Of a stretch of 64,000 nt of DNA, positions 39,001 to 45,000 are shown in pieces; position 1 is the stretch's first letter; the number at the start of each line of letters is the position of its first letter. The stretch is from positions 10,228 through 74,227 of the forward strand of contig JAUYBI010000041.1 in NCBI GenBank assembly GCA_030693145.1, in the 5' to 3' direction. Both the position numbers and the translations under genes were made by a program. The notes beneath the pieces are model-generated. The model searched no databases and was not told where the DNA came from. It saw only the letters and a list, made by a program, of their open reading frames with translations. Source of the DNA: Candidatus Omnitrophota bacterium. GTDB taxonomy: Bacteria; Omnitrophota; Gorgyraeia; Gygaellales; Profunditerraquicolaceae.

Positions 39001-42000
39001 AAAGCTTAGAGATTGTCGATTTCGCTGTATGGGATAGGGGGCTTAAGAAGTTATCGTTGATTTATCTGGTTAACCCGGAATTAGCTGATGAGATACTTGA
39101 TTTGTCTTTACTGCATGAAGATGGTCACCTTCAGTTTATCAAGGATGTAAAGCAGGGTAAGTTTCCACCTTCTGCTGTAAATACAGAACTCGATGAGCAA
39201 TACGCGGATACAAACGTTTTAATAAAAGCGGGGTTGCGCGGCCTAGGTGTAAGCATGTGGTTTTATGCTGCTTTTTTAAACTCTGTTTATGAAACCGAAT
39301 TTAAGGATGATAATTGGATAGAGGCAAGGGTAAAGTTTCTATTAAAGTACCGGATTCTCGATTCGCCTATAGATCTACCCAAGTTTTTGCGTATCATGTT
39401 GCCATCATCTCTTTCAGGTTTACCCATTCATGAGAACCTGGGGGCAACAATTGAAGAAAAAGCTAGGGAATATTGTATAGAGTCTGTTGTAAAATCAGCT
39501 CTGGAAACCGAACAGAGATTCCAGCGGGCCAGATATAATAGACGTCTGGATAATATTGGTTCTTTCGATACTGCCTTTGGAAAAAAAGACGGCGGCAAAG
39601 CTAATTTAGCTTTCTCCCGTCTCGGTGCTTCCCTTAATCCTGAGGACTACAAGTATCTACCCATTCCCACTGAAAGAATTACTCCTGATTTATTTAAAGG
39701 CGCTTTGGAAAGATTAGAAAAAGACTATCCTCACTTAGCAGTTGCCTTTAAGGACGCAAATTTTGCCGGCTTCTTCTGGGCAAAGTATATGCCTTCAGCC
39801 GCGGCAATTATAAGATCAGGAGAGGAATATGGCTTCTTATTGGATGATAGACTAAGAGAGAGACTCACTCAACTTACACCAGATTCAGTTACTCTATTCC
39901 TGTATCTCTTAGTAGTGCATGAGGCAACTGAATTAACTCTGCAACTACAAGGAGCTACTCCCGATATAAATACTGAAATTGTTTCAGAATTAAATACCAT
40001 AGATGCCTATAAAAAACTCACCCAAGAAGAGAAAGCTAAGTTAAGCGTTCTCTGTCAAGACTTAGATAACCTATTTAGCAATAATAGATTTACTTACGTT
40101 ATAGATTTTTATGACGGGATTATAGAAAATAGATTCGCTCGAATGGAGACCATAAATAGATTAAGTAGATTTTTTAATCAATACCCCGGGATTAGTAATG
40201 ATCAATTTAATTATAAAAAGTTAAATAAATTTTTCGGGTTATTTGAAAAGATAAAAGAAGAGTTACTGGAAAAGATATCTGATATTCAAACAGAAATTCA
40301 AATAATCTCAAAAGTTCAAGATCCTGAATTTTTTGAAGATGATACCAATACTATTGAATTGATGGTTAGTTATAAAGCCCACGAAGTTTTTAGCCCACGC
40401 CAATTAATGCAAATTGCCTCTCTGATTAAGCCATGCGATAAGGCTAGTGGAATTAAGATAATTGATATAGTTACCCAACACTGGAATGGGCCGGTCTCTC
40501 AGCATTTAAGCATTAGTTTAATTTGCGTTGGAGAGAGGGAAAGTTGGATAATTTATTCTAAAGGTTTAGAAAGTCCCGTACACATCATTGTTGATCCTCA
40601 CAATGATGTGCGAAAAATAGACTTTAAAGTATTCAAACGCGCCTCTAAACAAACTGATGGCGGTTACCTTGATAACGGCGGGGCGTTTGACATATCTCAG
40701 GGGAAAGAGGGGAATAGGGTTGTGGAAACAACAAGCATTCTTACTAATAAAGGAGTAGATGATTTACTTATAAAAAATAGTAAGATTGTTCTTCCTTACG
40801 GAACTATCGATGGATCAATCCTAATCAAGGAAGGGAGAATCGCGCAGATTGATCGCAATATAGATGTTGATAAAGGAGTCAAAATCATAGATGCCAAAGA
40901 TAACATTGTCGGCCCCGGCTTTATAGATTTGCAAATACGCGGCGCAGGTGACGTAAGGCCCATAAGCGGGAAAGCAAGGGATATAAAAGCAATGGCTGAA
41001 TTTCTGCATCAATTCGGCGTAACTTTATTTCTCCCGACTGCTGAGGCAGCGCCTATATCAGAATTGAAGAAATTCTTAGAGGCAGTTCGTCAAGCCAGAG
41101 AAACAACTTTAGGTGTTGGGCCTGCGCATATTGAAGGGCCATGGCTCAACCCTGAAATGCGCGGAGCCTTACCAGCCGAGTATTTGCTTGCGCCTGAAGT
41201 AGCTCAGATACAAGAGTTTATTGATGAATCAGATATTTTACGGATTATAACGCTTGCACCTGAGGTATTCATGCGCCAAGGGCTCGAAGGATTAATTTTA
41301 AAGATATCTGAAGCCGGAATTATTCCTTCTATAGGGCATACTAAGCCGACACCAGATGAGACAGATAGGATAGATTTTAGTAAATTTGGCATTAAGATGG
41401 CCACCCATGTTTATAACGGCATGGACAAAAAAGACCAAAAGCTGATAGATAAATTATTTTCAGCCGACATTATATTTACGGTTATTCTCGATATAGCGCA
41501 TATGCCTGTTGTAGCAATACAGAATATTCTTGGAAGAAATAAAAAGGTCGCTTTTATAACAGATGCGCTTAATGCAGGAAGAAAGAGCGTAAGCGTAGAC
41601 GGTCTAAATTATAAAGCAATGGTTAATGATGAACGCGGCCCGGGGGAGGCTTTTTATGCCCAGAAGGAAGGAAAACTGGTATTGGGTGGCAGCTGCGTTA
41701 CGATGGATCGGATTTTTAGAAATGCAATTGAGCATCTAAAGATCTCTGTAGAAGATGCGTTCAAAACAACTAGCACGATCCCGGCAGAGGCAATAAACGA
41801 GAAGGATTTAGGGACAATTGAGATAGGTAAACAGGCAGATTTGGTTATCCTGGATAAAGATTATCATGTTATTTTCACGATTATAAAAGGGAAAATCGTT
41901 TATTCTAAAGATGAATTATCAGCATTAAGTATTCCTTTTGATAATGGTATCTCCTTAGGCAAAGATGCATCCCTCGACGGCGGCAATAACCAACACTCTC

Positions 42001-45000
42001 TCCAAGTCGCGCTTGACTTTGTGGAAGCAGAACCGGCGTTAAAGGTTGCCCGAGAGGCTTATTTAGGCGGTGTAGATTTTATTGAGGCAGGTACACCTTT
42101 GATTAAAGCATTAGGCATGTCTGTGGTAAAAGAGGCAAAGCAGAATAATCCCGGTAGATTGATCGTAGTTGATATGAAGCCAATGGACACAGGTAAGCTT
42201 GAGATGGAAATAGCGATTAAAGCAGGAGCAGACATTGTAATTATCCCTGGCATTGCGCCGTTATCCACCTTAAAGGAATGTGTTGAGGCAGCACAAACAG
42301 CAGAGGCAGGATTTGATATCCTAAGAAAATTATTGATAGAAACTGGGCAAGAATATGATATTCGTCTTGATTCGTTTTTTGCTGTCGACAATATGGATGG
42401 AGGTATTAATAAGCGCATTAAAGGTTTGATATGGAAATCACTTTTAGACCACGGGGAAGTTTACAACATTGCTAAGAAACATTATGGGGAAACCAATAAA
42501 AAGATATTGATTATCAATGCGGATACGCATGATGATAAAAGCAAAACTAATTCTCCGAATGAAAGCAGTTGGGCTTGGTATTTAGAACAGGAAGATATTG
42601 CCAGGGTAGTTCATATGCCTTCTTATTATAATCAAGATAAAGGGAATAGGAATGAAAATAATTGGCGTACTCCGGAAATAGAAAAAGAAATTTTGTTAGC
42701 GGCAAAAGAAGCGAAGGAAAATGAATGGGGGATTTGGCTCACCATAGATTTTGATTTTTTTTCTTTTAAAAAGGTAGAGGTTGAATATGGACAGGTGTAT
42801 GCGGATCATACATTCAGTACAGAGGTTATGTACGATATGGATGAAAATGAAGTATCAAAAGAATTAACAGCGATGGTGAAATTTTTTAATGATAATAAGA
42901 TAATTATTAGTAGAATTATTCCTTGTGAATCAAGGAGATATTTAGCGAGCGCAGTTGTGAAAACTCCTGTGGGGTTTGATTATTATGAATGGGATGTTTA
43001 TGAGAGATATCCTAAGATTGAAAAAGGGATAGATCTTTATTGTGAGATGATTAGAAAAAATATTATTTCGTTTTTTGGTAAGATGTCAACGCTTAAAAAT
43101 TATGAGAAAAAAGAAGATGAACCGTGTCTTTCTGATGGAGGTATTAATCATGAAAAAGAATTTTCGATATTTGATAAAGGGACTGAAGGTCCTAGGTATG
43201 TTGGCGAAGATGGCGGAAGTAATCAAAAGTTAGAAGTCAAAGTTACTCCTTTCGAGGCGATTGACATACTTGTAAAACACGTAGATGGGACTGTCTTTAA
43301 AGGCATAAATTTTGAAGATGCCTACAAGTTATTCGGCATGATCTTAGAAACAATTCAGGCAGGAGGAGAAATTCATTACATCGCGGCAGGCAGAAGCGGC
43401 CAGGCAGCGAGTATTTTTGCAATTTTACTTAATGAATACGCAAGAGACGCCTTTGGCAAGCCGGTAGTTATCCATAGGATAAGCGCGGACGATTATTTCC
43501 CGCCGGTTAAAAAGGATGGGTTAGTTATAGGAATCAGCGGCTCAGGTTCAACGCCGTTTGTGAATGACAACTTGGCACTGGCAAAGGAATTAGGGGCAAA
43601 GATCGTAGTTATTACCGCAAAACCGCAGATTTGGCAGAAGAAAACAGAAAAGCATCCTGACGTAAACGATGTTGTCCCGGATTATTTAAATATTCCTGAT
43701 GTTTGGGCAAAAGCGGTGTTTAGCAGGATAGGAAAAAAGGCAGATGTGAAGATTATGTATACAAGAGGCGGATTACGGCTGGCAGAGCATAATTTATTGA
43801 TTGAGAGCTTAAAAGAAGCTTACAAAGGCCTGGCTAACGCTCCGCCGGAAATGGTGATACCTCTGGTTATTTCTTATTATTTCCCCCGCCCCGCCAGCGT
43901 TAACAGCGAATTAAAAATCAACCGTAATTTACTTAATACCGCTAACCTTGCCTGGAAAGCAAGCTCTGCCTTAAAACTTGCTCTTCGTAAAGAAATATTC
44001 CCGCATGAGTTGGAGCACTGGATTCAAGGTGATCTTACTACTGAAAGAGAGATACTCGCTAAATCATCAAATAATTTTAAGTCCCAGCCTGAAGTTTTAA
44101 GGGCATTGTTGTATCTTTATAATAATAAGGTAAACGGGTTTGTTTTGGATAAGCAGTGGAGGGCGAATCTAGAATTAATCAGCGCGCGAAAAGCACGCAA
44201 ATCCTTACAAGACGGCGGGGAGAGGCGAAGCAGCCTTGCTCAACGTTTAACCGCTGTTACCAAAAGAGACCCGCTAGAGGTTATTCTTTGTTATTATGCG
44301 GCAAATTCAAGATGGGGTTCAATAAGACGGCTTTCTTCAGATGGCCGGATACCTTTAATCTTTACAAAGATTAAAGGTTGGTTTGGTTCGCGATTAGCGC
44401 GGCTCATTTCAATATTTTTTTGGCTTAGTTCAGCGTCATTCTCGACAATAAACACAATCAAAGCATCCGTTGGAATTCTTTCTTCCAAATCCGGGTGGTT
44501 AATAATATATTTAGAAAACTCATGGTTTATTTCGAGATTCTTTTCAAATAATTCTTTTTCAGTCATTTCGCGCCTCCTTCAAATTACCTCTTACCATAAC
44601 CTCAAGTTGTATGACAAAACTTATGATATCATTCTTCAAGCGGCTATGCGAATATCGCCTTCTCGTATCTGGAATCAGTTTGGCAACATAGGAAATATTC
44701 TGAGGCTGCATAATCGAAGTATAGCTAACTTTTTTAATAATGTCAAGTTTGATGAAGGTAGGATAAAAATAAGGCTTGAGAAAAAAGACGGAGCGGTTGC
44801 TCAAACTAAGGAACTTGACGGGGGGGAGATCCTGGGAGTAGATAATAATCTCCGCCTACCTTTATATGACTTTTCGCGGGCCGAGCCGGAAAAATGGTCA
44901 ATGCGTACCGCCAGAGTCCCGTGGGTAGGCGGCGCAAAATTAGTAATAAAATTTGCCTGGCAGAATAGGCCTCGCGAAGAACAAATTATAATGCTGGAAA

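Follow-up and report, generated by a model that had tools for sequence, protein, structure and literature searches.

Giant open reading frames (ORFs) of up to 85,804 and 147,155 residues have been described in Omnitrophota (West-Roberts et al., 2023, bioRxiv 10.1101/2023.11.21.568195; 10.64898/2026.06.07.730766), and both preprints describe such giants with arrays of sugar-metabolism enzymes (PGM, PGI, hexokinase, radical SAM, methyltransferases and HEAT). A subset forms 'multi-enzyme metabolic clusters', and such giants have been interpreted as membrane-anchored (10.64898/2026.06.07.730766). C39 (double-glycine) and S8 peptidase domains have been reported in Omnitrophota giants, with the cleavage points stated as unknown (West-Roberts et al., 2023, 10.1101/2023.11.21.568195). 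Whether a giant bacterial protein works as one chain or as cut pieces is an explicit open question. Here we analyse 64,000 nucleotides (the window, whose numbering is used throughout) of contig JAUYBI010000041.1 from a Candidatus Omnitrophota bacterium, and in particular its segment 40656-44219, where an initial annotation had placed a NagA deacetylase, a hexulose-6-phosphate synthase (HPS) and a PHI-like SIS isomerase within one giant ORF.

Viral and other polyproteins are cut at short Gly-Gly-containing sites by papain-like or adenain-type proteases, and the C39 enzymes are 'double-glycine' peptidases. The explanation that we favour for the Omnitrophota segment, and hold as a whole to be reasonably probable, is that it consists of consecutive modules of one ORF of at least 64 kb, that its HPS and PHI pieces are remnants, and that the product of the giant ORF is a polyprotein processed at or beside the tripeptide DGG.

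Results

One reading frame spans the window

The window is read by a single plus-strand frame, free of stops over its 21,332 codons and closed at neither end. This frame, +3 (first codon at nucleotide 3), has 0 stops; the other five have 712-2,294 each. It carries more than 25 Pfam families, many at full length, and scans for tRNAs and Rfam families found none in the 64-kb window. Between 40.7 and 44.2 kb the modules run in the order NagA-like, HPS-like, arginase-fold (X), a 25-residue spacer, and a partial SIS with an HExxH domain (Y). Profile matches upheld the three families first annotated, their order and their fusion, and the proposed start at 40770 agrees with the 40764 found here. The named relatives of X and Y are partial, contig-filling proteins from metagenome-assembled genomes (MAGs) of 'Candidatus Omnitrophota bacterium', save P0006 (labelled Deltaproteobacteria), and the named relatives of the SIS module are likewise Omnitrophota MAG ORF fragments save the two weakest. 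The window contains no taxonomic marker gene. The window ORF is a new member of the published Omnitrophota giant multi-enzyme ORFs.

DGG punctuates the frame between domains

The tripeptide DGG occurs in frame 53 times in the window, where 5.8 occurrences are expected. No other tripeptide approaches this enrichment, and among the xGG tripeptides DGG alone is enriched. None of the 53 copies lies inside a domain envelope, with envelopes covering 27% of the residues (P 4.5e-8). DGG is found 5-60 residues upstream of the native N-termini of PGM, PGI, hexokinase, NagA, HPS and X, in the ends of the X and Y structure models where the predicted local distance difference test (pLDDT) is low, and at the C-terminal edge of X, where it is aligned in four relatives and replaced by DNGG in a fifth. 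The copies that had been noted on each side of HPS, near 41975 and, as a GGINK-type variant, near 42400, were located at 41976 and 42396.

The motif extends beyond this genome, being enriched 7- to 28-fold in the independent ORF fragments P0006, P0037, P0041 and P0089. The codons that specify it differ among genomes, and the conserved entity is therefore the peptide. Other giant fragments that share modules with the window (P0153, P0084 and P0013) are devoid of DGG and carry SSSP at their junctions (in P0153, 4 copies against 0.02 expected), while in P0003 DNGG stands at module junctions in place of DGG, which suggests a lineage-specific punctuation. DGG fits a putative polyprotein cleavage site, and processing at DGG is favoured because co-evolution of a protease with its site would be expected to produce a boundary motif that is exact yet varies by lineage. 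Nothing relevant emerged from a literature search on DGG or polyproteins among giant bacterial proteins. An internal Shine-Dalgarno or start-signal role for DGG was rejected, as GGAGG is present at only 8 of the 53 sites and no consistent start codon follows.

If the giant were left uncut, DGG might instead be a hinge or domain insulator, with the enzymes held as beads on a membrane-tethered megaprotein and the HPS half and partial SIS serving as structural spacers. Such an arrangement would agree with the transmembrane-like helices downstream, with the published view of these giants as membrane-anchored (10.64898/2026.06.07.730766), with the position of DGG in flexible, low-confidence regions and with the want of a recognised protease in the window. 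However, linkers rarely need an exact tripeptide, and DGG is exact at 53 places and never inside domains; its exchange for an exact SSSP in other lineages is a pattern typical of protease-site co-evolution. Moreover, several DGG pairs (25908/25923, 45987/46029, 37800/37866, 43134/43209, 50064/50142 and 12525/12618) enclose just 5-31 residues, segments that make little sense as hinges. We consider an uncut giant unlikely, while leaving it appreciable weight.

The nucleotide sequence beneath the motif raises another alternative, in which DGG is mainly a DNA-level junction, GACGGCGG, produced by or serving in-frame cassette shuffling, and NagA, the HPS half, X and SIS-Y are recombined cassettes; proteolysis would be compatible with such an origin. 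The window holds 30 copies of GACGGCGG, all in frame and none on the minus strand, against 0.34 expected, and they are used against the local codon preference, which elsewhere is for GAT and for GGT/GGA. The same modules also recur in differing neighbourhoods of different giants, bounded by DGG each time. Furthermore, a family of 47-nucleotide junction repeats (...CCGCTCAGCGCGCCTTGACGGCGG, peptide RSARLDGG; 50295-50341, 50886-50932, 51864-51910 and 54558-54604) flanks the HicAB and DUF5615/DUF433 toxin-antitoxin cassettes described below, with spacings of 591 and 978 nucleotides, like a small cassette array. Against this, the stretch conserved at most DGG junctions is only 8 nucleotides long, the DGG codons vary freely in other genomes, and the window showed no recombinase. 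The junction repeats do not support an integron-like attC, since they fold no better than shuffled sequences in two of three junctions and form no long hairpin. A primarily DNA-level role for DGG appears to us rather improbable.

The HPS module is the first half of a barrel

For the 140-residue second module, HPS was the best-matching family in both profile and PDB searches. TIGR03128 scored 97.6 bits over model positions 1-101 of 205 only, short of the curated cut-off of 200; Pfam OMPdecase scored 81 bits over positions 3-104 of 221 only, and the PDB HPS structure 3ajx aligned only over residues 2-107. The module falls short of a complete (beta/alpha)8 barrel of ~205 residues with the phosphate-binding beta7-beta8 loops, and at E <= 1e-4 the window yielded no HPS C-terminal half and no second OMPdecase match. 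The minus-strand ORF beneath the module (42062-42418) is without a family match. Aligned to 3ajx and to the HPS-PHI fusion 9lj9, the motifs of the N-terminal half are intact, namely ALD (beta1), EAGTPL (beta2) and DxKxxD (beta3).

The closest relative found was the N-terminus of a 331-residue HPS-like gene in an Aenigmatarchaeota MAG (L001, 9992-10987), with 69% identity over 101 residues. In that MAG rpiB, HPS and PHI are adjacent separate genes, and among DPANN archaea this HPS type and PHI are encoded by neighbouring separate genes. The L001 gene belongs with P0005 (from a Nanohaloarchaeota MAG), P0004 and P0007/P0153 to a group of '1.5-barrel' HPS-like proteins of ~330 residues, in which an N-terminal half with catalytic-type motifs is followed by a nearly complete second barrel. 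The second barrel's own first strands look degenerate. Of this layout the window module retains only the first half. An intact unit is present in the Omnitrophota giant ORF fragment P0153, where a 1.5-barrel HPS precedes two SIS domains.

The SIS domain is PHI-like, partial and joined to an HExxH domain

Downstream of X, a short peptide between two DGGs precedes the SIS module, as it does in the Omnitrophota fragment P0021. Pfam SIS matched with 37.5 bits (nucleotides 43368-43625, model positions 7-90 of 131), and the alignment of relatives extends the domain to the limits given in Table 1. HxlB covered positions 23-110 of 178, TIGR03127 scored 34.6 against a curated cut-off of 160, and the MurQ subfamily model gave 40 bits over a 42-residue stretch. 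The closest modules were in Omnitrophota ORFs, with 43% identity for P0021 and 37% for P0037 and P0153. More distant matches were PHI-type: AF1796 (1vim) and the PHI part of the HPS-PHI fusion 9lj9, both weak as PDB matches, and at 32% the archaeal PHI located beside HPS. Alignment to such a fusion had been proposed at the outset, and both the HPS motifs and the PHI-type SIS do align to 9lj9, the latter weakly.

The domain ends after a 'VVITAKP' strand and is without the PMGTxFE-containing C-terminal third that is conserved in all relatives (P0021, P0037, P0007 and archaeal PHI). In comparison with P0037, window residues 1-143 correspond to 633-803 and residues 183-337 to 1123-1294, so that ~320 residues, comprising the remainder of the first SIS, a second SIS and a linker, are missing in frame. 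These alignments indicate a PHI-like SIS domain that has apparently lost its C-terminal third by in-frame deletion and become joined to Y.

Homologues of Y occur in the Omnitrophota proteins P0014, P0015, P0017, P0018, P0070, P0102 and P0037, and the GLANAPP and HExxH(x8)E motifs of the domain are invariant. In other Omnitrophota proteins Y is located downstream of 4-alpha-glucanotransferase or glycogen-debranching-type regions. The AlphaFold (AF2) model of Y has a pLDDT of 89, and Y gave no match in Pfam, PDB sequences or Foldseek-PDB, including no match to a zincin fold; on the basis of the model, Y may be an undescribed fold.

A working ribulose-monophosphate pair, as the initial annotation had implied, would place NagA in fusion with HPS and PHI enzymes that channel formaldehyde or pentose phosphates within the giant protein. 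HPS and PHI-type SIS are indeed the best family matches and stand in the natural gene order, and the HPS half keeps its catalytic-type motifs together with its high identity to archaeal HPS. The pair therefore stands at the level of the HMMER profile families, but not as an operational pair: the phosphate-binding beta5-beta8 half of HPS is missing with no second OMPdecase in the window to replace it, the SIS domain is without its conserved C-terminal third, and both modules score far below cut-off (97.6 against 200; 34.6 against 160). A functional pathway here is very unlikely.

The sequence between HPS and SIS is an arginase-fold module

The separation of ~0.85 kb first given for HPS and SIS is close to the ~0.9-1.06 kb measured between the matches. 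Its description as unassigned sequence did not hold, as the interval contains a conserved domain, X, predicted to be complete and of arginase fold. Searches of Pfam, NCBIfam and a word-indexed protein database with X gave no match, and the word-indexed search was nearly empty for the region as a whole as well. An exhaustive HMMER search with X recovered a family with E-values down to 1e-48, and the word-indexed result is therefore a false negative. The family consists of long Omnitrophota ORF fragments and of stand-alone proteins of 280-380 residues, and its alignment shows an invariant H together with NxDxHxD and DxDxxS motifs (N41-D43-H45-D47; D118-D120-S123). Pfam Arginase (PF00491) matched 6 of 15 family members weakly (best E 2.8e-4) and did not match X of the window.

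The AF2 model of X has a core pLDDT >90 and shows a three-layer alpha/beta fold with the DxHxD and DxDxxS-type metal motifs. The top Foldseek matches were the peptide arginase OspR (8brp), agmatinase and formiminoglutamase (probability 1.00, E 3.7e-5), and guanidinase was also matched; the TM-scores (template modelling scores) were 0.35-0.50. X resembles OspR and the ureohydrolase superfamily in predicted fold and in these motifs, and differs from them in its low identity (12-15%), its TM-scores and, for the window copy, the missing Pfam Arginase match. Rather than a linker, X is thus predicted to be a complete metallohydrolase-like module of arginase fold. The possibility that 'GGINK' is a remnant of the HPS beta7 AGGI loop left by an internal deletion was rejected, as X homologues in other giants start straight after DGG with unrelated residues.

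The NagA module is complete

TIGR00221 matched the first module over model positions 5-380 of 380 (2.4e-59, 201.2 bits) and Pfam Amidohydro_1 over 1-345 of 345, and the module comprises the full barrel and the composite beta domain. Its best PDB matches were all NagA. The scores lie under the curated equivalog cut-offs (201.2 against 225.65 bits for TIGR00221; 171.5 against 483 for NF008371), and because the former falls just short the module is labelled 'NagA-like'. In alignment with E. coli NagA (1ymy) the HxEGPW (HIEGPW), GH (IGH), THxYN (THVYN), AH and TDA (ITDA) motifs are kept. We take these conserved positions to be the metal ligands and the catalytic Asp (E131, H195, H216, H251 and D273 in E. 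coli numbering); the position that we assume to be His143 is Leu in the window. The module is probably active.

No stop interrupts the giant frame across antisense genes

The minus strand between 44297 and 51827 carries eight intact small genes of toxin-antitoxin type: DUF5647 with a DUF7718-like ORF, HicB, DUF2283, HicA with HicB, and DUF5615 (PIN-like) with DUF433. Their Pfam E-values reach 1e-22, and each lies inside one DGG-bounded segment. In the segments between 44.2 and 51.9 kb that hold them, translation of the giant frame is odd and of low complexity. The giant frame crosses all eight genes without a stop, for which synonymous recoding gave P 0.003-0.10 per gene (0.007 and 0.003 over DUF5647 and the DUF7718-like ORF) and a combined P of ~1e-16 with the codon usage of the giant ORF, or 4e-11 with that of the antisense genes themselves. 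The giant frame is actively maintained even where its translation makes no sense, and it is therefore unsurprising that eroded pieces of HPS and PHI survive.

These data also bear on whether the frame is translated as a whole. Two truncated modules, and stretches at 44.2-51.9 kb that run antisense to real genes with a low-complexity translation, could be taken as signs that the frame is a pseudogene array in decay or else a computational curiosity, with NagA, HPS and SIS as dead fragments. Yet such a frame would hardly show zero stops in 64 kb and more than 25 enzyme families, many full length, nor would it stay open across the antisense genes; the latter, with odds of at most 1e-11, demands selection for read-through. 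We regard it as extremely improbable that the long frame is not translated whole.

Other features of the window

Several modules in the window are repeated. The two PGI copies (24108-25907 and 29484-31307) are 78% identical, a pair of PHP-containing modules (7461-10388 and 15759-18626) 49% and a pair of HEAT-type modules (52461-54596 and 56433-59897) 27%; a 31-residue peptide after the DGG at 12525 recurs at 15759 with 90% identity. The first 41 kb, made up of soluble-enzyme modules throughout, is devoid of transmembrane-like hydrophobic helices, which occur only after 45.7 kb, at ~45.8, 46.7-46.9, 51.6-52.0, 60.0 and 63.1-63.2 kb. GC skew is ~0.2 in most of the window and falls to ~0 in the 2-kb bins 10001-12000 and 22001-24000. 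Segment 21807-24107 (767 residues) is without a Pfam match in the giant frame, and even at E <= 1 Pfam was uninformative for the segment upstream of NagA. The features are collected in Table 1.

Table 1. Positions of the modules, DGG junctions and other features in the 64-kb window.
Feature	Position	Strand	Remarks
Module 1, complete NagA-like amidohydrolase, DGG-bounded	40656-41975	+	440 aa; domain match 40764-41894
Module 2, N-terminal half (beta1-beta4) of archaeal-type HPS, DGG-bounded	41976-42395	+	140 aa; match 42000-42305, then ~30-aa tail
Module 3 (X), predicted complete arginase-fold metallohydrolase-like domain, DGG-bounded	42396-43133	+	246 aa; family mostly in Omnitrophota
Spacer between two DGGs	43134-43208	+	25 aa; pLDDT <50 in model
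First two-thirds of PHI-like SIS domain	43209-43640	+	Pfam SIS and relatives' alignment
Module Y, conserved domain with GLANAPP and HExxH(x8)E	43680-44210	+	~170 residues; HELEH at 44004-44018; ends at DGG
Six in-frame DGG junctions in 40656-44219	40656, 41976 (41976-41984), 42396 (42396-42404, 'DGGINK'), 43134, 43209, 44211	+	
Other example DGG sites	1947, 7461, 24108, 34449, 63576		
DUF5647 and DUF7718-like ORF, two overlapping small genes	44297-44804	-	Pfam 7.8e-22 and 1.9e-4; in DGG-bounded segment 44211-44816
Radical-SAM/B12, DegT aminotransferase, APS kinase, PHP (x2), CofD-like			Further enzymes in giant frame
PGM/PMM, PGI (x2), shikimate-DH-N, 6PGD, 6-phosphogluconolactonase			Further enzymes in giant frame
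Methyltransferases, PRK and ARMT1, hexokinase, histidine phosphatase, PEMT, HEAT repeats, others			Further domains in giant frame

Discussion

What was first read as a NagA-HPS-PHI fusion is a run of consecutive modules in one ORF, in which the NagA-like and arginase-fold modules are whole, HPS is a half-barrel and the SIS-HExxH part is a chimera. An archaeal-type HPS-PHI unit may have entered Omnitrophota giant ORFs and, in the lineage of the window, have been whittled by in-frame losses, with the arginase-fold module now standing between its remnants. The HPS and PHI pieces would then be in-frame remnants of a unit like that in P0153. As encoded in the window they would be incapable of the ribulose-monophosphate reactions, and they would survive because translation of the downstream modules depends on an open frame. 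The giant polyprotein would be cut at or beside DGG by a putative protease. Three separate products would result, namely NagA, the arginase-fold enzyme and the SIS-HExxH protein, whose substrates would be amino sugars or sugar phosphates, and the HPS half and short spacers would be by-products of cleavage.

Several observations weigh against this explanation. The strong codon bias towards GACGGCGG in the window is unexplained by a purely peptide-level signal. DGG does not separate every enzyme, as radical SAM and DegT share one DGG segment, and shikimate-DH, 6PGD and 6PGL share another with no DGG between them. In addition, the HPS half, with all its N-half motifs and its 69% identity to the archaeal gene, could on sequence grounds be recent or still constrained rather than decaying. 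Finally, no peptidase Pfam match was found in the 21,332 residues at E <= 1e-4. Three paralogous DGG-bounded modules (12618-13340, 14925-15758 and 38607-39587) each have a hydrophobic helix followed by an HExGH motif (HEEGH, HEKGH and HEDGH); they gave no informative Pfam match even at E <= 1, and a word-indexed search was nearly empty. These modules could be metalloproteases and are candidate processing enzymes.

For the question of one chain or cut pieces, DGG supplies concrete, testable candidate boundaries, with predicted products of 440, 140, 246, 25 and 334 residues in this region. The same boundaries allowed two orphan domains, X and Y, to be modelled with confidence. Half an HPS and two-thirds of a PHI indicate that modules in giant ORFs can erode by in-frame deletion with the frame preserved, and metabolism annotated from domain matches, such as a ribulose-monophosphate pathway, would therefore mislead. 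The most valuable by-products of the analysis are the DGG boundaries, as candidate cleavage sites, and the antisense toxin-antitoxin genes within the ORF. More generally, and only tentatively, the Omnitrophota giant ORFs might be true cellular polyproteins in which an exact, lineage-specific punctuation (DGG here; SSSP or DNGG elsewhere) directs a dedicated protease to release dozens of enzymes, and in which selection for an open frame tolerates eroded fragments and antisense toxin-antitoxin genes, recoded to avoid stops, that may in turn stabilise the gene against deletion.

In common with the published Omnitrophota giants ('Archaeovorins' and the 'multi-enzyme metabolic cluster' class), the window ORF has more than 20,000 codons, sugar-phosphate enzymes, methyltransferases, radical SAM, HEAT and transmembrane segments. 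It differs from them in that the window showed no SecA-DEAD, C39 or dockerin domain, while NagA/HPS/PHI modules, DGG or SSSP punctuation and antisense genes inside the ORF are unmentioned in either preprint. As in archaeal HPS-PHI fusions and hxlA-hxlB pairs (PDB 9lj9; NF041755), an HPS precedes a PHI-type SIS on one polypeptide, and the window sequences are closest to the archaeal ones; in contrast to those fusions, the HPS is a half-barrel, the SIS is without its last third, an arginase-fold domain and two DGGs stand between them, and the curated score cut-offs are missed widely. The resemblance to viral-type polyproteins lies in the many units carried in one frame and in a short, exact motif that ends in Gly-Gly and differs by lineage. 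Unlike these, the window has no protease domain that could be found, and its more than 50 units are cellular metabolic enzymes, on a scale beyond that of any viral polyprotein.

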